This document shows, one piece after another, positions 25,841-38,248 of a stretch of DNA of 64,000 nucleotides. Origin of the DNA: Candidatus Hermodarchaeota archaeon. Its GTDB lineage: Archaea; Asgardarchaeota; Lokiarchaeia; Sigyniarchaeales; SOKP01. Every line of letters begins with the position of its first letter. The stretch's first letter is position 1. The DNA is taken from contig JBHLLG010000003.1 in the NCBI GenBank assembly GCA_048885925.1, positions 1 through 64,000 of the forward strand, in the 5' to 3' direction. The position numbers were made by a program, and so were the translations under genes. The notes beneath the pieces were generated by a model that had not been told where the DNA came from, did not search any database, and saw nothing but the letters and a program-made list of their open reading frames with translations.

Positions 25841-27103
25841 TTGTTTCTAAAAAGGTTTATTCTTTTATTAATAATAAAATCATATAAAAATAAACCTAAT
25901 TTTAAAGATAAGGTGATTCAAATTAGAATAGAATATTCTGAGAGGGTAAAAAGGCTTCCAACATATATATTTGTTGAAATAGAGCAACTTTTAGAGGAGA
26001 AGAGGAAAAAAGGTGTTGATCTTATACCTTTAGGAATTGGAGATCCTGACTTAAAAACTCCTGATTTGATCATTAATGAATTGATTGAACAGGTTAAGAA
26101 TCCAAGAAACCATAACTATCCTTCAAGTATGGGAGAAGAAGATTTTAGAGAAGCAGTGGCACGATGGTATAAAGTCAGATTTAATTTGAATTTAAATCCA
26201 AAAGATGAAATTTCTAACATAATTGGAGGAAAAGAAGGGGTGGCGAATATTGCACGAGCATTTGTAAATACGAAAGATGTTGTACTTTGTCCTAATCCCG
26301 GTTATCCTGTTTATGAGAATGGAGCAACAAAATTATGTGATGCGGATCCCTATTTAATGCCTTTATTAAAAGAGAACCAATTTTTACCTGATTTAGACTC
26401 TATTGATGATGATGTTCTTAAAAAGACAAAATTAATGTATTTAAATTATCCAAATAATCCAACAGGCGCAATAGCATCGAAAGAATTCCTGAAGAAAGCA
26501 GTTGATTATGCTGAAGATTATAATTTTTTCATTATTCACGATAATCCTTATTCAGAGTTTACGTTTGGAGATTATATAGCCCCCTCAATATTACAAATTG
26601 ATCAAAACCATGTAGAGATCAATAGTGCATCAAAAATGTTTAATATGACTGGTTTTAGGTGTGGTTGGATAGCTGGTAATAAAGATGTTATAAAAGGATT
26701 AAGAAATATTAAATCTCAAATTGATTCAGGGTGTCCTAAGTTTATACAAAGAGCTGTAATTAAAGGTTTAAATGAATATAAATCAGAAAAGAAGCCAAAC
26801 ATTGTTGATAATATAGTTAAAGTTTATGAAAAACGTAGAGATGTCCTTATAAAAGGTTTAAATGATATTGGGTGGATGACGAAAAAACCACAAGCAACTT
26901 TTTATGTCTGGACTCAAGTTCCAAAGAAATATCAAGAGATCAGTTGTATGGATTTTGTAAAAAAATTAATAGATGTTGGAGTTGTTATAACACCAGGAAT
27001 TGGTTTTGGTCAATATGGGGAGGGTTTTGTAAGATTTGCATTAACACAACCTGAAGAAAGAATAATTGATGCATTACAACGAATAAAAAAAGTAATTAAT
27101 TAA
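25841..27103 (+). CDS. dapL: Class I/II PLP aminotransferase, LL-diaminopimelate aminotransferase-like (true start probably ~25913-25922)
   Basis: LGIGDPD, GGKEG, NYPNNPTG, DNPYSE, SKMFNMTGFRCGW. Confidence 0.8.
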   Translation: MFLKRFILLLIIKSYKNKPNFKDKVIQIRIEYSERVKRLPTYIFVEIEQLLEEKRKKGVDLIPLGIGDPDLKTPDLIINELIEQVKNPRNHNYPSSMGEEDFREAVARWYKVRFNLNLNPKDEISNIIGGKEGVANIARAFVNTKDVVLCPNPGYPVYENGATKLCDADPYLMPLLKENQFLPDLDSIDDDVLKKTKLMYLNYPNNPTGAIASKEFLKKAVDYAEDYNFFIIHDNPYSEFTFGDYIAPSILQIDQNHVEINSASKMFNMTGFRCGWIAGNKDVIKGLRNIKSQIDSGCPKFIQRAVIKGLNEYKSEKKPNIVDNIVKVYEKRRDVLIKGLNDIGWMTKKPQATFYVWTQVPKKYQEISCMDFVKKLIDVGVVITPGIGFGQYGEGFVRFALTQPEERIIDALQRIKKVIN

Positions 27104-27162
27104 GTAAGATTAAAGAATTAAAAAAAATTATATCATTTTAAAATTTAGAATCAGATTATTTT

Positions 27163-27336
27163 TCATTTTGAAGAGTATTTCCTCCTAAGATACCCCAGCT
27201 TTTTCGCATCTTCAACCTCAAGATTTTCTATTAAATCATTTGGGCTATCAAATGCTAACATAACTGGAGCTTTAGAAGAATCCCAATTTTTATAATAATC
27301 TAATATTAGATCCAATTTATCGGATTCTTCTTCCAG
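27163..27336 (-). CDS. Unannotated 57-aa small protein, probable CTG start
   Basis: GGAGGTG SD 7 nt before CTG; open frame (M)EEESDKLDLILDYYKNWDSSKAPVMLAFDSPNDLIENLEVEDAKKLGYLRRKYSSK. Confidence 0.6.
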   Translation of the reverse strand: MEEESDKLDLILDYYKNWDSSKAPVMLAFDSPNDLIENLEVEDAKKLGYLRRKYSSK

Positions 27337-27572
27337 TAGTTTTCACCTCCTTTTTCTTTATTTAGCTTCCACGTAGAAGAATCAATCCCTATTCTCCCTA
27401 GATTTTACAATTTTCAGAAATATTATGTTAAGAGAACAAATCCTTCAAAGTTATAAAAAAGAGGGAGTAAATAAGGATTTATTCTCTTCATAATACTAAC
27501 TTTAATGGGATAATAAAGGCTTTCTTATAGCCTACCCATGTACAAGTAGTATTATGATGTGAAAAACTCATT
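27337..27572 (-). ncRNA. Putative structured 5' leader / cis-regulatory RNA
   Basis: Adjacent stems 27489-27498/27547-27556 and 27430-27445/27473-27488; loop complementary to the SD; BRE/TATA GGAAAG-TTTATAA at ~27596-27608 on the minus strand. Confidence 0.55.
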
Positions 27573-27745
27573 AAATAAGAAATATTAGAATAACCTTATA
27601 AACTTTCCCATTTCCTTCCCATTTGTCAAATTATTCAGATATATTGAGTTGACAATTAAGTATAACGAGTGTTTGATTAAATATCATAAAAATCTATTAA
27701 ATCAAGTACAATTTTAATTATCTAAGTCATTCACTTTCTAATATT

Positions 27746-29083
27746 ATGGTTTTAAAAAGCATGGATAAAAAAATTGTCTTAGTAGGCGCGGGAAGTACTA
27801 GTTTTGGACCTAAAATGTTTAATGATATTTTTTTAAGTGACATATTGGAAGGTTCAACTATAGTTCTTCATGATATCAATAAAGAGAAACTAGAGATGAT
27901 TTATGAATTATTGACAGTTGAAAATGAAAAGCGTGGTAGTAAATTCAATCTTGAAAGTACGATTGACCGAGTGAAAGCTCTCAAAGGGGCTGACTTTATA
28001 ATCAATTCTATAGAAGTTGGTGATAGAATGAAATTATGGCGACAAGATTATGAGATACCAAGAAAATATGGTTCAAAACAAATATTAGGAGAATGTGGAG
28101 GTCCTGGTGGCACTTTTCATGCGTGGAGAATAATTTCTCCAATTGTTGATATAGTTAGAGATGCTGATAAGATTTGTCCTAATGCATTTTTGATAAACTT
28201 CTCTAATCCTTTATCCCGAGTATCTTTGGCTATTAAACGAACTGTAAAAGATCTGAAATTTATTGGTTTATGTCATCAAATAGGCTTCCTTACAAAACAC
28301 TTACCCTCTATGTTTAAATATTCAATAAAAGAGCTTAAAATAAAAGTAGCAGGCCTCAATCATTTTGCTTTTCTTTTAGGATTAGAGGAGATGGCTAAAG
28401 GAAAGGATTTAATGCCAAAATTTAACAAAAAAGCTATTAACTACTTCAAAGAAAATGAAGATCGGTTTGAATTTTCTAAATTAACTCTTGAAGTCTTCAA
28501 AAGATTTGGATATTTTTCTTATGTTGGAGATAATCATCTTGGAGAATACTTGATTTTTGGATCTGAGTTCACAAAAAAGCAGGACATGATAGATTGGATA
28601 AATTATATAGATAACCAAGGTCAAATGGTATATGCAATGTTTGAGAATTATTATAAAAGATTTAAAAGAGGAAGATATCCGAATAAAGGGGTTTTATTAA
28701 AGAAACCTTCTGGTGAACGAGCGATTCCAATAATAGAGGCAATAATTAAAAATGAAAATTCTTATGAAATTGCCGTTAATATTCCTAATGATAATATAAT
28801 CGATAATTTGCCAAATGATTTAATTTTAGAATGTTCAGCAATTGTGAATAGAGATGGTGTGCATGGTGTTAAAATAGGTTCCTTACCCACAAGTATAGCT
28901 GCTCTACTGCGTATTGAAGCTTCAATCCAAGATTTTTGTGTCGAGGCAGTTTTAAAAAAATCTAAAGATATTGCAATCGCTTGTTTAGCAGTAGATCCGA
29001 ATGTTGGAAGTTTCGAAATGGCAGAAAACATCTACAACGATATGATTGAAGTACAAAAAGCCTTTTTACCCAATTTTAAATAA
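27746..29083 (+). CDS. Glycoside hydrolase family 4 (NAD+-dependent alpha-glucosidase/galactosidase)
   Basis: GAGS, ECGGPGG, NFSNP, GLCH, GLNH. Confidence 0.92.
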   Translation: MVLKSMDKKIVLVGAGSTSFGPKMFNDIFLSDILEGSTIVLHDINKEKLEMIYELLTVENEKRGSKFNLESTIDRVKALKGADFIINSIEVGDRMKLWRQDYEIPRKYGSKQILGECGGPGGTFHAWRIISPIVDIVRDADKICPNAFLINFSNPLSRVSLAIKRTVKDLKFIGLCHQIGFLTKHLPSMFKYSIKELKIKVAGLNHFAFLLGLEEMAKGKDLMPKFNKKAINYFKENEDRFEFSKLTLEVFKRFGYFSYVGDNHLGEYLIFGSEFTKKQDMIDWINYIDNQGQMVYAMFENYYKRFKRGRYPNKGVLLKKPSGERAIPIIEAIIKNENSYEIAVNIPNDNIIDNLPNDLILECSAIVNRDGVHGVKIGSLPTSIAALLRIEASIQDFCVEAVLKKSKDIAIACLAVDPNVGSFEMAENIYNDMIEVQKAFLPNFK

Positions 29084-29260: not shown

Positions 29261-32200
29261 TTGCAATGGGCGATGAAAGCAGATAATAATAATTCGCAAG
29301 AAAAAATAAGAAAAGCCACTGAGTTGCTTCAAAAGTCCTGGTGGTTTTCATGGTTCTTAATAATTGCTCCTTTAACAACAGCGATAGTTGGCTTTTTTAT
29401 TTTTCGTCTTTTCCGAATAGAGTTTTATTTGGCACTTTCTTTCGCTGTTGTTGTTTTTATGTTTGCTTTACTACTTTTTTATAAAGCCTTCGATAAATAC
29501 AGAAATAATCCATTTTTTCTTGATAAAACTAACAATCTCAAAGCAAGAATTCATATTATATTTTTAATTTCTACTTTAGCATTTATTGCAACTCCCATTT
29601 TTATTCTTATATCGCCAGTAGGATACTCATTTATTACACTTCCATTAATCAGTTATGCTCTTCTCTATAATATTGTTTATTATTATTGTTATTTCCAACC
29701 ATTAGACTTTTATGATTTAAATAAAGGAGAATTCAAGCATGCTCAGGATTTTAAATTAATATTAAAACAACCATATAATTTCTTACTTTTCCTAAATTAT
29801 ATTATTCATATAATTTTTTTATCCATTACTGCTTCCACTAATTTCTCTTGGCTTTATTCTCTTATAACAAACCTATTCATATATTTCATTACTATAACAA
29901 GTACTAAGAAACAAATTAATGAAATAGATGTTCTAATATTAGAAAAGAAATCATTCTTGAAAGAATTAACGTTATATAAATTAAAATTAACGATTTCTTT
30001 GATTAACCTCATTTTTATTTTATTAATTCAACTACCCTTTATAGTATTAATAACTTCAATTCTTTCAGGTACCCATTATTCAAATATAGAGCTTGTAAAT
30101 AGCTTTTTTTTATCTCTAATATTTATCTTGTTTTATTTTAAATCTAGGTTTTATATTAGTTTTTACTATACTTCCAGGCTTACTGTCTACGAAGAAGCTG
30201 AAAAATTAAAAGACGTTCAAGAGAGACCACCATTTTTAAGTAATAAGTATCAAAAGTACAATTCTTATTTTTCTGGACTATTAATTCTTTTGATAATGCT
30301 TTTCTCATTTCTAATTAATATTCCAGTATTGATATTATTTATTCTTCCTTTTCTTTATATACTCTTTCATTATGAACAGAAGTCAGATCTTTGTTCTAAA
30401 AAATACAACAAATATATTATCCTACTAAACTCTTTTGTTATTTTAATTTCTATTTGTTTTGGGCTTTTACCACAAATTTCGGAAATATTTTACATAAATA
30501 TTCAATTTATTTCATTTTTATTTTTGTCATATTTTGCATTACAATTATTTGCGAAATTTGGGTATTTTAACAAAGATAATATTATTATTTATCAAAATAT
30601 AATTGGAGTTTCTTGTTTTTCTATAATATTATATTCTTTTTTTCCCATTGTTATTTTTGAATATATTTCATTTACATCTGATCCATTTATTATATTCATT
30701 TCAAATTTTTTAGTCCATTCAATATTAATTTTGATAATTTTATTAATTTCTTTTTATGTATTATATATTCGTTTCTTTTATGCCAAACGTCCAAAATTAT
30801 TTAAAGTCAGCGTAGTTGCTAATATTTTTGTAATTGAATTAATTCTATTTATTTTAATTAATCTGAGAATATTTTATTTAGTTGAACTTTTTACATTTTT
30901 CCAAATTTTAATTTTGTCAACTATTTTATTTCCTTTAATTTTTATAATCTTTGTATCAATAAACTATTTCATGGGTATCCTCCCCCTAAAAAACTTTCTG
31001 CTACTCACATATTATTCTTTTTGGATGTTAATTTTAACTGTTTTTCTATCAATCTCTTTAACTTTTTTTAACAATTATATTATAATAACTCTCGATCTTT
31101 TATTGTTATCTATTTTACTTCATTATAACATAAAATTTGGATTAAATTTGGATAAAATAACCGCTAAAACTTTTAAAAAATTTGTAAAAGTCAATTCCTA
31201 TTTATTAACTTTTGAGCTTTTCTTTTTATTTTACAATATTTTTTTCGTAGCTTTTCAGGCGTTATTATTATTTGATAACATAATATATTCAACTTATTTA
31301 TCCTTAGCGATAATTTGCACTTTAATTAATCTATTTTCTAAAAGGGAGATCTTTTCAGAAGCGCTTTATATAAAAATAAACGTCTTTATTTTACTATACA
31401 GCTCAATTATAACATTTTATTTTTTTTTATTGTTAACACTCAATACATTTTATGTCTTAATTATTCCTATTTTAACCTCAAGCATTGTTCTTTACATTCC
31501 AATTTTATATTTAAGAAAAAAGAAATTATGCTCAAATTTAACTCCCAAATTACTCACATTTAATAGTATTTTATTATCAATAACGTTAGCATTAATTCCC
31601 ACTATTATAGGCTTAGATTTATTCTATTTGGGCATATATTTTGACTTGACTTTTTTAATAATAACAATAATCAATTTTACATTGTATATTCTGTTCTTGA
31701 TTTTTGCGATAATCAACTATTTATCACGTAAAATTAAGATTAGAGAGGAAAGATTAAAATTTTTCTTGAAATTTCAATTGCTTACTGTATTCTGTACAAG
31801 TGCTACGACTATATTTTATTATCCCTATTTCTTATTAAGCGAGACTTTATATGCAATTGTCTTCCCTTTGATTTTTGTTTGCTGTTTCCTATATTTTCCT
31901 CTCTATTACTCTTATAAGAAATCGTTTTTCAATATAGAGGATGTTAAAAGAATAATAATTCTTAATACAATAATTTTATCTTGTTTATTAACAACAATAC
32001 CAACTCTAGTTGGCATAAATTTCATTTATCTTGGAGTTATTTTTGATTTCAATATGTTTTTGTTAAACATATTAAATTTTTCAATCTATATATTCTATTT
32101 ATTCCTTTTAATCATCAGCAGCTTATTAAAAAAATTCAAAATTAAAGAAAATTTCATCTTAATTGTTAATCAAGTACATATTATATTCTTATTTATAATA

Positions 32201-35200
32201 TCTATTACAACAGTTTTCTTTTATCCTTTTCTAGTGTTATTAGAATCTTATTATGGCATAATTTTGCCACTAATTGCATTACTTTTTTCATGGTTCTTCC
32301 TTTTTTATTATTCTTATAAAAAAGAGTACTTTAATTTAGAGAGGGTCAAGAAATTGACAATATATAATTTTATTATCTTTTCTTGTTTAATTATTTCTTT
32401 ACCTACAATTGTAAGTTTGGAATTTATTAGAATTGGATTAGAAGTAAATTTAATATTTATATTAACTAGCTCTCTATTCCTACTATTTGTTTTTCTAAAG
32501 ATTTCTGAGAGTTTAAGTGTAAAAATTAAATTAAAAGAGAAATTTATCAAAAATTTTAAGTTATTTGCATTTATTTCTTGGTTTTCGTTTACTTTACTAA
32601 TATCTTATTATATTGCATCGACATTTATAGCTGAAATAGAGTTAACTCCAATAACTTTATTAATATTGAGTTGTAGCTTTTTTACATTTTTTACATTAAG
32701 TATTTACAGTTTATTTCTATTTTCTAGCTATTCAGCGGGATTATCGTATTTAAAATATTTCCAGGATCTTATCATTTATGGGATTATAATTTCAATATCA
32801 TTTATATTCTTTTTTTTAATACTCTCAGTAGAGTTTTTCGTATTTCTTTTTATAGGTCCACTGCTATTTAATGTATCAATTTTAATTGGTTCTTTTTTTA
32901 CAATTTTTCTTTTAATTCTAATAATAATTGATAAAATAATAGAAATAAGATTATCTCAATTAAAAATTATAATTGAGCTAATATCATGGCTAATTATAAA
33001 GATATTAATATGTTTATCAACCTTTTCTCTATTTGATTTTTTTACATATCAGTTCTTTGCATATCAGTTCTTTATGATTAATAAGATACTTTTATTTTCA
33101 CTAATATTTTTGTTTCTTACTCCAATAAGTCTGTTTATTTTAAAGAGTTTAAAATATTTAACTACTGAAAATCAATTTTTAATAAAAAAGATCGCTGTTA
33201 TAATCTTTATCATTTCAATATTAAGTATTTATTCTGAAATTTTGTTTAATACTATGAATTTATTACCTATCTTTTATCAGAATTTCCTATTTCATATAAC
33301 AGTCTTTATGGTAAATTTAATTTTATTTGGTTATTATTTTATTTTGATTTTTAATATAACCGTTGAAGAACGTTCTGTTTTAAAATTATTTAGATTTTAC
33401 ATTTTATCATTTATATTATTTATAAGTCTTCTTTATTTTGGTACAATTTTATCAATTTTTCTTTTATTAATATCCTTTGTTATAATTCTCTCTCAGAGGA
33501 GTTCTATTCCAATTTTTCGATTTTTCTCATATTTCCTACTAAGTTTTTTTACCTTTATTGAAACTATTGTTATTCTAAATACTTATGCTATTATACCCGG
33601 ATTTGATATACTAATGATGAATATTTTTATTATTCTTTATCTATTATCCATCAGTGGAGTTTTAGTATTTTCTATTTTATTAAATATAAAAAGAAATAAT
33701 AATCTGGAGAAAATTTCACTATATTCTCTCATTTCACTATTATCTTTTGTCTATCTTAATTCATTTACTAAAATATTAATTCTTTACAACATAACAATTT
33801 CAGCTTTTATTTTATTGTTATTTATTGGAATTAACTTGTATCGCCAAAAAGATGAACGATATAAATGGTTTATTAACCCGTGTGTACTTTTATTTATTTT
33901 TGATTTTATTAGCTTTTTATCATATTCATGGTTCTTTAATAATCCAATTTTTAAATTGTATAATCCGATTTTAACTTTTACATTAACTTTAAGTATGACT
34001 GGATTTGGATTTATCCTTTTGTATAATAAAGCGCCAGCTAGATTTAGGAAGAAGTCTTTTCTTTATGTAATTCTTCCATCAATAGTTTTTTCTTTTCCAA
34101 CCTTTTTATATTTTCTTATCATCGCTGCTTTATCTATGCCATTATGGTCTGTAGTCCCTTTTATCGTCGCAATTAATTTTGGAGTTTTTCTTTTTTATTT
34201 TTCAATTGGAATTTATCAATGGAGGATCTCATGGACAATTTGGAAATCTGGGTGGTATGCTTGGAATATTCTACCTTTTGTTAATTTCTATATAATTTAT
34301 CAAAATTTTACAGGAATAGATGTATTAACCAATTCATTACAATTTGGAATGTTTTCCGTTGAAGGATCATTAATTATATCGATAATAATTTGTTCTTTAT
34401 TTTTTTTACCAGTTGTATACTCTAAAATTAAGAAATACTTTTCTCAAATTTTTTTTATTATTTGGGGTGAAAGTCTATTTTTACTCTATTGGATTAGTCA
34501 AAATTTGTTTGTTGATGATATATTACTGAGAAATTTATCTTTCGTTTTATTCTCTGCGATTTTATTGATGCCTATTTTAGTAGGTTTAAAATTTTGGAAA
34601 ATTTTGTCAATACTTTGGGTATTTCCTCTAACATTTATTAACATATGGTTTATATCATCTTATTTGATATCTATAGGAATATCTTTTGAACTTGCATTTT
34701 CAATTGATGTTTTGGTTATAGGGTTGTTATTAATAGTATATTCATTTTTTCCAAATATTAGATCAGTAGTTGTTGTTTTAATAACTGCGTATTTCATAAC
34801 TTTATTAGGTATTTTCTTAACAATTTATTTTGTTCTATATTCTCTAATATTGAACCCATATTTTGCTATAAATATGAGTTTTATTACGGTTGGTTTTAGT
34901 CTTTTTTCCTCAAAATATGTAAAGTTATCCAAAAGAATTATTGATATATGTCTTTCTTGGATTCTAATAATAAATTTTGCATGGTTAACTTTTAATACAT
35001 TAAGTTTAATTCCAGGCTTAATAATGGTTGCTTTTTCATTAGCATTAACTGTTTTAGGTTTTTCCTTCTTCATATTTAATCGTTATAAAATGAAAATTCC
35101 TATCAATAAAGCGATTCCATATTTAATTTTGACAATTGGAGCGTCATTATCAGCCTCATCTTTAATTTCTATTATCTTTAAAGCATCTCCAGGTATTCTG

Positions 35201-38200
35201 ATTTCTGTCTCTTTTTCAGTATTCATTCTATTTTTATATTTTTTAATTACGGAATATAGGTTCATTATTTGGCTTCTTATTCCAATTCCTATAACTTCAC
35301 CAATACTTGAGCAAATAATGAGAATAAATTTTATTAAACCATTTTGGCTTTTAACGTGGTCGATGTTATATCTTATATCTTTTCAGGTATTGATAAATTT
35401 ATTTAAAAATTTGGTAACGGAAGAAAAACCGGAAATAAAAAATAGTATTTTAAAAATTTTCACGGATAAAAATCAAGTGAAACAGCTTAACTTTACCTGT
35501 TTTCTATTAAACTCAATAAGTATATCTCTATTTATCGCAATTTTTTTACCAAATTTATTGAAACAAATCATATTTACTGAATTACTATTAATTTACCAGA
35601 TTTGCGATTTTCTAATAATTTGGTCGTTCTCATTTTTAATTTGTATGAAATATGTTGAAAAATCAGAATTGAATATAAGAATAAAAAATCTAATGCATTA
35701 TTTCGCAAAAATTAGTTTCATTTTATATCTTTTAATACCCTTTGCACTAGGAATTAATCTTTATTTATATCTGGTATTTATGAAAGCAGAATTTTTGATA
35801 TCTCTTTATCTAGTTTTATTATTATTCAGTGCAGTAATGTTTATAGAAAATTTCTTCTTAGATAAAAATTATTTTTATCTTCTTTTCAATTCAACAAGAA
35901 ATCAATTTACTTTAGGTTCATGGCTAATTTTTAGTAATATTTTGGCTCTATTCTTATATTTATTTCATTTAAACGTTTTTCTTTTAATTTTAACTATTTC
36001 ACTATTGAATATCGTATCTATTTACTTTTTATCTCATTTAGATATTTCAAAAACCAAAATTTCTACTTCTTATTTAATTCTTATTTATAATTCATTTATT
36101 TGGAGTTCTTTTTATATTGCATCGTTAATTTCTGATGGGTTGGTTTTTATATTTGAAGAATTAAGGGGTTTTACTTATTACTCATTATTATTTCAAAATG
36201 CATTTTTACTATTATTCGTTTTTAGTTATTTTTTCATTAAATTTGAAAAGAATTTAAAAAATTGGATTGAATTCATTTTTTTCATCATATTTCAAGGATT
36301 ATTAGTAGTAAATTTGATTTTAATACTTGTGATTTATAATTATTTAAATGTACTTACAATTAACATAATTATTTTGATTGAGACTTGTTTGTCATTTAAA
36401 CCAATTAATAGTGTTAATATTATATTACCTGAACAAAAATATCCAAACTTCTTAACAAAAATCTCTTCAATTTTAGTATTGTTATTATATATTGAAGTAA
36501 GTATGACGATTTATGGATTATTAATTGGATTCATAGGAATGCTTGAGAGTATTCTAATTTCTCTATCATTATTATTCTTCCTAACTTTTGCAGATATTTA
36601 TTCTATCAAAAAAGTAAGAAAAAGTTATGCTTCACTTGTTCATAGTGTTAGTTTCTTTACGATTTCATTTATGTTGTTTTTAATTATAAATCGGTTGGTA
36701 TCTCAATATCCACTCTTACTTAGTGTAGAAATTTTTATCTTTTTAATAATGCAATTTTACACTAATTATTCTTTATTTGCCTCTTTAAAGAATTTTAGTC
36801 CAAATAAAAAAGAGGATCTTAAAAAAGTTCAATTATATATTCAACATCTTCTAGGTATAGGTTTCTATCTCACTCTATGTAGTTTTATATTACAGTCTTT
36901 AATCTTACAAAGGTTTGAATTGCAATTAATTCTTTTAATCCTAAGCGTTGTAGTCCATGCTTTAATGATTATAGACAATTTTCTTTTGAAATTTATAGGC
37001 AAAACGTCTAATTACATTAAAGTCATTTCCTGGATATTTATTATGACGTTTACGGCTACATACTTAATCTGGCTTTATAGTACTTATTTTATTACCTCCT
37101 TTTTTACTGTTATACCAATTATTATAATTATTCTTATCCTCGAAGTAGCTTATCTCTTCAGATTATTGATTTTTTGGCCAATAATTATTTCGAAAAAAGA
37201 AAAAATTCGTTTTTTTCTAATTAATTTAACCTATCTTAATTTTATTACATGGCCTTTGTATTTTGCGAGATTAAATGCTTTTCTTATGCTAAATTTAATA
37301 CTATTTTCCTTTCTAATTACTGTTATAATTACTTATATTGATGAAACTATAGGAGTTTTAAGAGAAAAAACAAGAAAATCCTTGAAGTCTTATTCATTCT
37401 TGATTTTTGGTAGCTTATTAACTATTGACGTTTTCATTCTCTTAGGATTTATTCCCCATTTCGATATTCTATTAAATGTTAGTATTTCTTCTTTATTATT
37501 TATTACATTTATTGTAATCAAAGTGAAGCCATTTAAAGAACATTCATTTATAGCTTTCGGTTTTTGGATGGCCATTTTTTTATTATTAAGCTTATTTATA
37601 TATCGGATTTCATTATCTTGGATTTTTGGAGTAGTAGTTTTGGGTTTAACTATTTTAATTTATCCATTCGTATTCCTTTTAGAAGAATTAAGAGAATTAT
37701 TTAACAGATTTATTGATAATTTAATAAATTTATTTAGAATGATAAAAACTATTGTTAGGAATTTAGTTATTAATATCGTCAATTTCATAAAGCTATATTT
37801 CAAATCAATTTTGATTATTGTTAATATGTTTCTTTCAATATTTCTTGGTATTCTTCTATCACCCGCAATATTGAATATATTAAATTGGATTCATTCAATA
37901 CTCCTAATATTTCCATTTTTTGGATTACTCTATTCATTCATCCCCACTAAAAAATCAAAAGATGTGGATATAACTTTTAAACGTCATATGTATCGTCTAA
38001 TTATCAGTTGGGGTAGTATTATTGTGGTTTTGTTTGCGTTTATAACACCTATTTGGTATATATTCACTATTTGGATATCAATTTGGATTGTTGGAGCAAT
38101 TTTATTACCTTATATAAGTTTTAAAGAAAAAAGTGAGAATATATCAATTAAGTGGAGATTTTATACACTAATACTTTTAATAATTTTGCTTATTTTATTT

Positions 38201-38248
38201 GGAATATTATTTGGTACTCAGATTTATATGAATTTTTTTCTAAATTAA
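29261..38248 (+). CDS. Giant (~2990 aa) polytopic membrane protein of unknown function (start likely ATG 29273)
   Basis: 9-kb uninterrupted ORF of alternating hydrophobic stretches and short Lys-rich loops; internal 134-aa repeats. Confidence 0.85.
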   Translation: MQWAMKADNNNSQEKIRKATELLQKSWWFSWFLIIAPLTTAIVGFFIFRLFRIEFYLALSFAVVVFMFALLLFYKAFDKYRNNPFFLDKTNNLKARIHIIFLISTLAFIATPIFILISPVGYSFITLPLISYALLYNIVYYYCYFQPLDFYDLNKGEFKHAQDFKLILKQPYNFLLFLNYIIHIIFLSITASTNFSWLYSLITNLFIYFITITSTKKQINEIDVLILEKKSFLKELTLYKLKLTISLINLIFILLIQLPFIVLITSILSGTHYSNIELVNSFFLSLIFILFYFKSRFYISFYYTSRLTVYEEAEKLKDVQERPPFLSNKYQKYNSYFSGLLILLIMLFSFLINIPVLILFILPFLYILFHYEQKSDLCSKKYNKYIILLNSFVILISICFGLLPQISEIFYINIQFISFLFLSYFALQLFAKFGYFNKDNIIIYQNIIGVSCFSIILYSFFPIVIFEYISFTSDPFIIFISNFLVHSILILIILLISFYVLYIRFFYAKRPKLFKVSVVANIFVIELILFILINLRIFYLVELFTFFQILILSTILFPLIFIIFVSINYFMGILPLKNFLLLTYYSFWMLILTVFLSISLTFFNNYIIITLDLLLLSILLHYNIKFGLNLDKITAKTFKKFVKVNSYLLTFELFFLFYNIFFVAFQALLLFDNIIYSTYLSLAIICTLINLFSKREIFSEALYIKINVFILLYSSIITFYFFLLLTLNTFYVLIIPILTSSIVLYIPILYLRKKKLCSNLTPKLLTFNSILLSITLALIPTIIGLDLFYLGIYFDLTFLIITIINFTLYILFLIFAIINYLSRKIKIREERLKFFLKFQLLTVFCTSATTIFYYPYFLLSETLYAIVFPLIFVCCFLYFPLYYSYKKSFFNIEDVKRIIILNTIILSCLLTTIPTLVGINFIYLGVIFDFNMFLLNILNFSIYIFYLFLLIISSLLKKFKIKENFILIVNQVHIIFLFIISITTVFFYPFLVLLESYYGIILPLIALLFSWFFLFYYSYKKEYFNLERVKKLTIYNFIIFSCLIISLPTIVSLEFIRIGLEVNLIFILTSSLFLLFVFLKISESLSVKIKLKEKFIKNFKLFAFISWFSFTLLISYYIASTFIAEIELTPITLLILSCSFFTFFTLSIYSLFLFSSYSAGLSYLKYFQDLIIYGIIISISFIFFFLILSVEFFVFLFIGPLLFNVSILIGSFFTIFLLILIIIDKIIEIRLSQLKIIIELISWLIIKILICLSTFSLFDFFTYQFFAYQFFMINKILLFSLIFLFLTPISLFILKSLKYLTTENQFLIKKIAVIIFIISILSIYSEILFNTMNLLPIFYQNFLFHITVFMVNLILFGYYFILIFNITVEERSVLKLFRFYILSFILFISLLYFGTILSIFLLLISFVIILSQRSSIPIFRFFSYFLLSFFTFIETIVILNTYAIIPGFDILMMNIFIILYLLSISGVLVFSILLNIKRNNNLEKISLYSLISLLSFVYLNSFTKILILYNITISAFILLLFIGINLYRQKDERYKWFINPCVLLFIFDFISFLSYSWFFNNPIFKLYNPILTFTLTLSMTGFGFILLYNKAPARFRKKSFLYVILPSIVFSFPTFLYFLIIAALSMPLWSVVPFIVAINFGVFLFYFSIGIYQWRISWTIWKSGWYAWNILPFVNFYIIYQNFTGIDVLTNSLQFGMFSVEGSLIISIIICSLFFLPVVYSKIKKYFSQIFFIIWGESLFLLYWISQNLFVDDILLRNLSFVLFSAILLMPILVGLKFWKILSILWVFPLTFINIWFISSYLISIGISFELAFSIDVLVIGLLLIVYSFFPNIRSVVVVLITAYFITLLGIFLTIYFVLYSLILNPYFAINMSFITVGFSLFSSKYVKLSKRIIDICLSWILIINFAWLTFNTLSLIPGLIMVAFSLALTVLGFSFFIFNRYKMKIPINKAIPYLILTIGASLSASSLISIIFKASPGILISVSFSVFILFLYFLITEYRFIIWLLIPIPITSPILEQIMRINFIKPFWLLTWSMLYLISFQVLINLFKNLVTEEKPEIKNSILKIFTDKNQVKQLNFTCFLLNSISISLFIAIFLPNLLKQIIFTELLLIYQICDFLIIWSFSFLICMKYVEKSELNIRIKNLMHYFAKISFILYLLIPFALGINLYLYLVFMKAEFLISLYLVLLLFSAVMFIENFFLDKNYFYLLFNSTRNQFTLGSWLIFSNILALFLYLFHLNVFLLILTISLLNIVSIYFLSHLDISKTKISTSYLILIYNSFIWSSFYIASLISDGLVFIFEELRGFTYYSLLFQNAFLLLFVFSYFFIKFEKNLKNWIEFIFFIIFQGLLVVNLILILVIYNYLNVLTINIIILIETCLSFKPINSVNIILPEQKYPNFLTKISSILVLLLYIEVSMTIYGLLIGFIGMLESILISLSLLFFLTFADIYSIKKVRKSYASLVHSVSFFTISFMLFLIINRLVSQYPLLLSVEIFIFLIMQFYTNYSLFASLKNFSPNKKEDLKKVQLYIQHLLGIGFYLTLCSFILQSLILQRFELQLILLILSVVVHALMIIDNFLLKFIGKTSNYIKVISWIFIMTFTATYLIWLYSTYFITSFFTVIPIIIIILILEVAYLFRLLIFWPIIISKKEKIRFFLINLTYLNFITWPLYFARLNAFLMLNLILFSFLITVIITYIDETIGVLREKTRKSLKSYSFLIFGSLLTIDVFILLGFIPHFDILLNVSISSLLFITFIVIKVKPFKEHSFIAFGFWMAIFLLLSLFIYRISLSWIFGVVVLGLTILIYPFVFLLEELRELFNRFIDNLINLFRMIKTIVRNLVINIVNFIKLYFKSILIIVNMFLSIFLGILLSPAILNILNWIHSILLIFPFFGLLYSFIPTKKSKDVDITFKRHMYRLIISWGSIIVVLFAFITPIWYIFTIWISIWIVGAILLPYISFKEKSENISIKWRFYTLILLIILLILFGILFGTQIYMNFFLN

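Follow-up and report, generated by a model that had tools for sequence, protein, structure and literature searches.

What does a long, strongly folded RNA leader do in front of a gene for a protein of only 57 residues? The question is raised by a 642-nt stretch of an Asgard archaeal genome (27104-27745, read on the minus strand; positions are those of the whole 64,000-nt stretch of DNA analyzed, hereafter the window). A first-pass annotation had described a switch-like leader ahead of a CTG-started open reading frame (ORF) and had suggested an undescribed riboswitch or attenuator, or a small RNA (sRNA)-microprotein module. Every element that it named is present on the minus strand where it was placed. 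The best explanation of the region is a single minus-strand transcription unit belonging to one family of Asgard (Promethearchaeota) archaea. The order on this strand is a direct repeat, a B recognition element (BRE) and TATA box, the ATG of an upstream ORF (uORF), hairpin P1, hairpin P2, a second CATAATA, AGGGAG, a copy of the P2 3' arm, a Shine-Dalgarno (SD) sequence, the CTG ORF and an oligo-T tract. The comparisons below support such a promoter-to-terminator unit, with a structured leader that holds several mutually exclusive pairings. The first-pass annotation had thus seen the structured leader and the microprotein, but had missed the ATG-started uORF (27571-27488) and the oligo-T tract (27127-27120). 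The leader carries a conserved and probably leaderless uORF that runs through P1 into P2, and this favors the attenuator in the original suggestion over the riboswitch or the sRNA. With confidence about evenly divided for and against, we propose an attenuator-like leader, in which translation of the uORF would refold mutually exclusive helices and so set initiation at a weak start codon.

The uORF begins with an ATG at 27571-27569 on the minus strand, has 27 codons (MSFSHHNTTCTWVGYKKAFIIPLKLVL) and ends in a TGA at 27490-27488. We compared 77 distinct leaders gathered from genome and metagenome loci. The uORF is open in all 77, with a length of 23-32 codons, and frames +1 and +2 over its span are closed in every one of them. 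Its peptide is conserved as MSFS-H/Q-x-NT..., ending in ...IIKRE or ...VL, and in a second genus of the family the motif M-x-F-S-[RHQ]-H-N-T-...-W-x-G-[YC]-K-[RS]-A-[FI]-I-P...V-L is kept. No single amino acid forms a run in it, and the constraints of RNA pairing overlap with its conservation. For 30 leaders with the other form of P1, among 36 listed, the distance from the ATG to the TAA at P2 is 81, 84, 87, 90, 93 or 96 nt. Each of these six length classes is a multiple of 3, which a hairpin alone would not demand.

The uORF is probably leaderless. The promoter proposed by the first-pass annotation is present at 27609-27596 on the minus strand, with the BRE GGGAAAG at 27609-27603 and the TATA box TTTATAA at 27602-27596. 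Counted from the first T of the TATA box, the uORF ATG is 31 nt away in 57 of the 77 leaders, 34 nt in 11, and 25-49 nt in the other 9. Archaeal TATA boxes are centered near -26/-27, so that this spacing would put the transcription start 1-4 nt before the ATG and leave the uORF without a leader of its own; in the reading proposed here, transcription probably begins 1-2 nt ahead of it.

At its other end the uORF is tied to P2. The uORF runs through P1, and in the window it overlaps P1 and abuts P2. In 49 leaders the stop codon is reached 5 nt inside the GAGAAUAAAU core of the P2 5' arm; in the remaining 28, the window included, a TGA or TAA lies 2-6 nt before that core.

The leader folds far better than its composition would predict. 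The predicted energy of the 251-nt leader is -62.1 kcal/mol, compared with -46.6 +/- 3.9 for 200 dinucleotide shuffles, none of which was as good (z -3.95). The plus strand folds too (z -3.34). At two positions of P2 the pair met most often (in 53 of 61 and 42 of 61 leaders) is G-U or U-G when read on the minus strand; as the plus strand would have A-C there, the minus strand is favored. P1 (27489-27556, minus strand) lies inside the uORF and consists of an outer stem, CATAATACTA (27556-27547) with TAGTATTATG (27498-27489), and the inner stems TGGG/CCCA and AGGC/GCCT. A hairpin is found at this place in 61 of 61 leaders, with 18-28 pairs and a mean z of -4.8 (all below -2.4); 60 distinct P1 sequences are represented. 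The inner stems take several quite different forms. Compensatory changes are seen in both outer and inner stems; pair 30-87, for example, is AU in 19 sequences, GC in 5 and GU in 1. An identity of P1 as an H/ACA or C/D sRNA was considered and rejected, as Rfam gave it no support and no ACA box was seen after the stem.

P2 (27430-27488, minus strand) pairs AAGAGAATAAATCCTT (27488-27473) with AAGGATTTGTTCTCTT (27445-27430) around a conserved U-rich loop (27472-27446). It is nearly invariant, with 99.4% of cells paired in 61 leaders and 8 of 15 pairs unchanged throughout. When the second genus is added a few compensatory changes appear, such as pair 114-147 (CG 24, AU 3, UG 1), and pair 100-160 is then GU in 9, AU in 7, GC in 7 and UA in 1. 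A premature terminator at the U-tracts of the P2 loop was also considered and was dropped; many leaders read CCTCTTTCT there, not a T5 run.

The clearest covariation in the leader is found in a helix that joins the P2 loop to a site downstream. The loop carries an anti-SD-like segment, CUCCCU (27462-27467, minus strand), which pairs with the SD-like AGGGAG at 27399-27394; in most relatives the loop reads UUGACCU and the partner AGGUCAA, and UUAACCU and AGGUUAA occur as well. Six of the seven pairs of this loop helix have changed on both sides, and pair 133-209 is GC in 36 leaders, AU in 10, UA in 8, GU in 4 and UG in 1, with 2 others. When mutual information with average product correction was computed over all column pairs, a subfamily signal dominated, and only the loop-helix pairs stood out as consistent with Watson-Crick pairing. 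The AGGGAG, which had been proposed merely as a competitor for the loop, is thus a partner of the loop supported by covariation. Together with P2 the helix may make a pseudoknot; alternatively, it may be the uppermost part of a long hairpin, as in the minimum free energy fold of the window sequence.

The helices were also scored together. None of 500 shuffles reached the covariation score of the whole structure, made up of P2, the loop helix and a 5'-end helix, P0, described below. An alignment of window-type and second-genus leaders (28 distinct rows) has P1, P2 and the loop helix together 92% paired, as against 47-51% with slid partners. Here 13 of 39 pairs have changed on both sides, 0 of 500 shuffles reach any of five measures, and the loop helix is supported again. 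RNAalifold, applied to 37 leaders, returned only P0, P2 and two stray pairs, and missed P1 because MAFFT misaligns the two P1 forms. Structural conservation was looked for in homologous leaders and was found: covariation supports P1, P2 and the helix between the loop and AGGGAG.

Several further segments of the leader are complementary to one another in ways that exclude the helices above. Near the 5' end, UUUUUCAC (27559-27566, minus strand) can form P0 with GUGAAAA(C) at 27346-27339, or the alternative P0' with GUGGAAG at 27372-27366. P0 covers the 3' end of the SD and the spacer behind it, and is the choice that RNAalifold itself makes. Over 61 leaders P0 is 89% paired, compared with 41-59% for slid controls (scored together with P2 and the loop helix), and P0' is 88% paired, compared with 52-62% (scored together with the helix between pyrimidine tract and SD). 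Neither shows covariation, as their columns hardly vary. The second CATAATA (27421-27427, minus strand) repeats the sequence of the P1 5' strand, so that it could take the place of that strand opposite the P1 3' strand and extend P2. This alternative, already pointed out in the first-pass annotation, is a conserved complementarity, 91.6% paired in 28 distinct leaders compared with 19-75% when slid, again with no covariation. Finally, a degenerate second copy of the P2 3' arm, GGGAUUGAUUCUUCU (27375-27389, minus strand), offers its 5' GGAUU to the AAUCC of the P2 5' arm and its pyrimidine 3' end to the GGAGG of the SD. Pairing of the pyrimidine tract with the SD is 93%, without covariation. Pairing of the copy with the P2 5' arm is 79.5%, compared with 62-64% when slid by one column (scored with the loop helix); this helix was set aside as weak, since several of its positions lack a partner in roughly half the sequences. 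Two candidate partners thus exist for the P2 5' arm, the one that contains the uORF stop. These competing complementarities are conserved well above most slid controls, the 3'-arm copy only weakly so, and they lie outside the covariation test because their columns are nearly invariant. Mutually exclusive helices of which the first overlaps the leader ORF, one mark of a bacterial leader-peptide attenuator, are thus present in the leader, with the alternatives seen as conserved complementarity and not as covariation.

Three segments are complementary to the SD region, with 77-93% pairing, one of them no better than its slid controls. The latter is the P2 loop, for which pairing with the SD had also been proposed: the possible 5-6 bp are 77% paired compared with 62-74% when slid, and 345 of 500 shuffles reach this value, so that the match is unspecific and does not exceed generic pyrimidine/purine complementarity.

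The SD itself, GGAGGTGA (27343-27350, minus strand), is perfect over 8 nt in the window, and its GAGGTG is invariant in 61 leaders. This 8-mer is rare in absolute terms, with 52 sites in the genome as against 22 expected, and 11 of these precede an ORF of at least 50 amino acids. The main ORF (27163-27336, minus strand) starts with the CTG at 27336-27334, has 57 codons and ends with the TGA at 27165-27163. In 76 distinct sequences the codon 5-9 nt after GGAGGTGA is CTG in 42, TTG in 20, ACG in 10 and ATG in 4; it is never GTG. Another eight of these 76 have an ATG codon directly before the start column, and 64 of the 76 lack an ATG at or beside it. Close second-genus sequences have ACG and ATG at the same codon position. 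Since CTG accounts for only 2.3% of Leu codons in 1579 long ORFs of this genome (TTG, 11%), a column rich in CTG behaves like a start codon rather than an ordinary Leu codon. The first description, of a strong SD ahead of the non-ATG start of a conserved microprotein, is supported.

The protein is 57-61 residues long in the family, and an alignment of 20 members shows D9, Y14, Y15, W18, D19, S20, P24 and K53 to be invariant. Residues 2-7, upstream of an internal TTG that has been annotated as the start, are conserved as well. The corresponding ESM Atlas protein begins at residue 8, with the internal TTG (27315, minus strand) read as M. Automatic annotation evidently truncates the ORF at this codon, and we corrected it on the ground that seven conserved residues lie upstream.

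These elements suggest how the leader might work. The RNA would begin with the leaderless uORF of 23-32 codons, and a ribosome translating it would melt the 5' end, then P1, and then the P2 5' arm, where it would stop inside the arm or 2-6 nt before it. The P2 loop, an anti-SD look-alike, would pair with the SD look-alike about 65 nt downstream, and the position of the ribosome would decide which of the mutually exclusive helices form. Each melted segment would have a conserved alternative partner downstream, the last of these at the SD and weak start, some 135 nt from the uORF stop to GGAGGTGA and the start codon. The choice of helix would then set the use of the SD and of the weak start codon, amounting to translational attenuation or coupling by a leader ORF. 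The control might run in either direction, by coupling, if the helix between the 5' end and the SD spacer is unfolded, or by occlusion, if the freed pyrimidine tracts bind the SD.

Several observations weigh against this proposal. The 77 leaders are related, and counts over them overstate their independence. Several second-genus leaders have TATA-to-ATG distances of 25-49 nt, and the uORF may not be leaderless everywhere. Some of the amino-acid conservation of the uORF may merely mirror what P1 and P2 require of the nucleotide sequence. No covariation is seen in P0, the pyrimidine-tract helix or the loop pairing, all of which touch the SD, since the SD is invariable. When the folding of 61 leaders was modeled with a partition function, the mean unpaired fraction of the SD was 0.50 in the free RNA; it was 0.42 when the 5' end was blocked, 0.36 when a ribosome was placed at the stop and 0.35 when all of the uORF was blocked. 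Individual sequences moved in both directions; blocking the uORF thus had no consistent effect on SD accessibility, and the SD sequestration that the first-pass annotation had implied does not emerge consistently from thermodynamic modeling. What the comparisons establish is the anatomy of the sequence, its conservation, the covariation of P1, P2 and the loop helix and the upkeep of the uORF frame; the start and strand of transcription, the translation of both uORF and main ORF, switching and its direction are inferred. A single contig from a metatranscriptome, 237 nt long with 11 differences and a depth of 3.3, covers 27156-27388, that is the ORF, the SD and about 40 nt of the leader; it carries no strand information, DNA carry-over is possible, and we take it as a weak hint of expression. 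Three further RNA libraries gave no contig, to which we attach no weight.

A plain bicistronic mRNA would account for part of this. The transcript would encode a peptide of 23-32 amino acids and a protein of 57-61 amino acids, with P1, P2 and the loop helix serving RNA stability, processing or folding without any switching. Both frames are conserved, the covarying P1, P2 and loop helix fit one static fold (P2 plus a pseudoknot), and the modeling, as just noted, shows no consistent effect on the SD. A static message would not, however, lead one to expect several mutually exclusive extra complementarities kept well above slid controls, nor the placement of the uORF stop at the P2 5' arm in all 77 leaders. 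In addition, 64 of 76 sequences retain a weak start codon after a perfect SD of 8 nt, which suggests that initiation is tuned rather than constitutive. We regard the plain bicistronic message as unlikely, though by no means negligible.

Alternatively, the leader could be autoregulatory, with P2 as an operator at which the encoded small protein, or another protein, represses or activates translation. P2 is conserved in sequence beyond what pairing needs, with its 8 invariant pairs of 15 and many invariant loop columns, whereas P1 varies freely, and the C-terminal helix of the protein is rich in Lys and Arg. The protein is hydrophilic, with both acidic and basic residues, and is predicted to form two amphipathic helices with no hydrophobic span; AlphaFold2 places helices at residues 2-15 and 32-55 (mean predicted local distance difference test score 80). 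A type I toxin-antitoxin mRNA, which would encode a hydrophobic, membrane-active peptide, was rejected on the hydrophilic character of this product. No RNA-binding family or fold was matched by the protein. Pfam gave no family for it; the best NCBIfam match had an E value of 0.019, for 1 of 20 members; a sequence-profile search of PDB gave no match at E values up to 10; the best Foldseek match in PDB had an E value of 8.7; and ESM Atlas yielded no usable match. Furthermore, the invariance of the P2 5' arm derives in part from uORF coding (KRE-stop) and from its several pairing partners. We consider such an operator rather improbable; it could coexist with a uORF mechanism.

A ligand-sensing riboswitch, in which P2, its loop and the downstream partner would be an aptamer that frees or blocks the SD, fares worse. 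The leader is conserved and structured, with a covarying pseudoknot-like helix and a long conserved loop, and a riboswitch here would be a new class: a search of the whole window against Rfam release 15 gave no match at gathering scores, in agreement with the first-pass annotation, which had recognized no Rfam family. Relaxing the E value to 10 for 27050-27760 added only sub-threshold hairpins resembling miRNA precursors, the best at 31.3 bits compared with a gathering score of 119. Against such a switch, the gene that it would regulate encodes a tiny protein, not a transporter or an enzyme. The element does not recur upstream of the genes of one pathway; each genome has one copy, which invariably precedes the same microprotein gene and is attached to no other gene. 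A conserved uORF occupies the leader, the conserved unpaired stretches are U-rich and of low complexity, and pairing of the loop with the SD is unspecific. Nothing points to a ligand-binding aptamer, and we consider this reading very unlikely.

The distribution of the locus bears on the last alternative. By blastn the 642-nt region is single copy in its own 3.9-Mb assembly, matching only itself, its own internal inverted repeat and short chance sequences, and the relatives mostly have one significant place each. It is thus not a repeat or a miniature inverted-repeat transposable element (MITE), which had been named as a possible outcome; many copies per genome, as expected of a MITE or other dispersed repeat, were not found. 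The DNA of the region is kept at 68-81% identity in 20 of 23 other searched genomes of the genus. A profile search located the small protein in 47 of 52 genomes of its own genus, in 36 of 42 of the second genus, in single genomes of three further genera and in 4 of 10 of a sixth, some of these matches being weak and all falling in the same family; none was found in 26 genomes from the other six families of the class searched. Public records with a homologous locus are labeled Promethearchaeota or Promethearchaeia, with a few labeled Hodarchaeota and one Odinarchaeota. The notion of a stand-alone sRNA, or of a repeat or mobile element that merely lies beside a small ORF, draws on the strength of P1 and P2 as hairpins on both strands, but is already largely refuted, and to us barely credible, given the single copy in this genome and its relatives, the fixed place and orientation between the same two flanking genes, the continuous architecture from promoter through uORF, SD and ORF to terminator, and Rfam matches limited to sub-threshold hairpin look-alikes.

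The flanking genes are both on the plus strand in the window, a class I/II aminotransferase at 25841-27103 and a family-4 glycosidase (GH4) at 27746-29083. Among 23 upstream neighbors scanned, 20 are GH4 genes, of which 17 are divergent and 3 co-directional, and the other 3 neighbors lack a Pfam family; among 10 downstream neighbors, 9 are aminotransferases, all convergent, and 1 is a major facilitator superfamily transporter. Exceptions to the leader are few, and three of these loci are cut by contig ends. In one metagenome contig (locus L078) the SD, CTG start and ORF stand behind an unrelated, G+C-rich upstream sequence that ends in a terminator-like GGGGC-T8 site; either the contig is chimeric or the leader is naturally missing from this variant. 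Two loci from another genus of the family (L109 and L110) encode distant homologs of the small protein (E values of about 1e-5) that begin with ATG, and no uORF, P1 or P2 was seen upstream of them. The leader may be younger than the protein, or may have been lost in that genus.

The ends of the unit are conserved along with the leader. A T8 tract at 27120-27127 (minus strand) has the form of an archaeal-type terminator and presumably acts as one; a run of T7-T10 occurs at the same place in aligned homologs. At the other end, a direct repeat, ATGGGAA-N4-ATGGG(AAAG), at 27603-27622 (minus strand), overlaps the BRE and extends directly upstream of it, and is conserved in homologous loci. The combination of [AG]TGGGAA-N4-[ACG]TGGG, (G)AAAG and a TTTA[AT]A box occurs at only three places in the 3.9-Mb assembly, namely in this unit (27622-27596, minus strand), at C50:4587 (plus strand) and at C52:12211 (minus strand). 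One of the two others precedes a Cys-rich ORF of about 66 amino acids with a GGAGGT of its own, and the other precedes a short ORF and an ORF of 300 amino acids. The three promoters may form a small regulon under one putative transcription factor. In part of the second genus (loci L095, L100, L101 and L103-L107) the second half of the repeat is inverted, giving a palindrome, ATGGGAA...CCCAC/TCCCAT, with the first half-site and the TATA box unmoved. An inverted repeat, TTGTCAA (27655-27649) ... TTGACAA (27629-27623) on the minus strand, stands between two divergent promoters, one for the GH4 gene and one for the small-ORF unit, and is kept in relatives as TTGTCAA ... CTGACAA; it is a candidate operator common to both.

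The genome in which the unit lies comprises 3.9 Mb in 181 contigs, and the G+C content of the region is about 28%. It encodes a TATA-binding protein and no sigma-70 region 2 was found in it, which identifies the genome as archaeal; no 16S rRNA gene is present in the 3.9 Mb assembled. Directly after the GH4 gene, the window has an ORF of 2995 codons on the plus strand (29261-38248), in the first 1000 residues of which Pfam found no family. The region of this ORF is unusually rich in A+T, its G+C content being 0.19-0.25, and both GC skew and AT skew are negative.

How does the proposed attenuator-like leader compare with known systems? Leader-ORF attenuation and uORF control are both known kinds of regulation, and very few cis-regulatory RNAs are, to our knowledge, known in archaea. 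The nearest bacterial counterparts are leader-peptide attenuators and translational attenuation, as in the leaders of trp-type operons and those of the ermC/cat type. As in these, the position of a ribosome on the leader ORF would decide the downstream fold, and the downstream SD and start would depend on that fold. Unlike them, the host is archaeal, the leader ORF is apparently leaderless and encloses a whole covarying hairpin, and it has neither a run of regulatory codons nor a recognized arrest motif. No terminator hairpin or clear SD-sequestering helix could be demonstrated here, and the gene downstream, instead of serving biosynthesis or resistance, encodes a microprotein that starts at a non-AUG codon.

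Translational coupling through the unfolding of long-range mRNA structure, known for example in RNA phages, offers a second comparison. Here too, a ribosome translating the upstream frame would unwind a helix between distant segments, namely the 5' UUUUUCAC and the GUGAAAA beside the SD, and so allow initiation downstream. The two frames are, however, about 135 nt apart, with further competing helices and a pseudoknot between them, and the long-range helix lacks covariation support.

Eukaryotic control by uORFs and near-cognate start codons resembles the unit in that a uORF precedes a main ORF with a weak start, CUG and ACG being typical near-cognate codons in eukaryotes; in the leaders CUG and ACG are likewise used, and GUG never. 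It differs in that initiation at the main ORF is evidently guided by the SD, GGAGGTGA lying 5-9 nt upstream, and not by scanning; reinitiation is unlikely given the 135 nt or so between the uORF stop and the main start. It is conceivable, though we would not consider it likely, that Asgard archaea use a eukaryote-style control of this type, in which a 5'-terminal uORF and a deliberately weak near-cognate start (CUG, UUG or ACG, never GUG) act through a refolding leader. If so, the level of the microprotein would report ribosome traffic or the stringency of start-codon selection by factors of the aIF1/aIF2 type, and the element would be the first conserved class of cis-regulatory RNA described for Asgard archaea as well as a natural case of archaeal initiation at CUG and ACG; archaeal initiation factors have been described as being of eukaryotic type (PMC7531240).

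Among archaea, ribosome profiling in Haloferax volcanii is reported to show that mRNAs can carry uORFs in their 5' untranslated regions and that about 30% of putative new initiation sites are near-cognate codons (PMC7261190). The relevant passages of that study describe no conserved RNA structure or mechanism, in contrast to the leader described here, and the organism belongs to the Halobacteria, with unrelated sequences. A full-text literature search, with subscription journals outside its scope, returned no description of an Asgard uORF, leader or riboswitch. Should the proposed mechanism hold, the archaea most closely related to eukaryotes would possess leader-ORF attenuation. The element is ready for testing, with 77 natural variants, a covarying core, a precisely placed uORF and a clear output in the SD and weak start, and it would provide a natural system in which leaderless initiation, SD-guided initiation and the selection of a non-AUG start take place on one mRNA. 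Compared with the attenuators and uORFs already known, what would be new is the archaeal host, the leaderless uORF, the hairpin inside that uORF, the pseudoknot-like loop helix and the non-AUG output.

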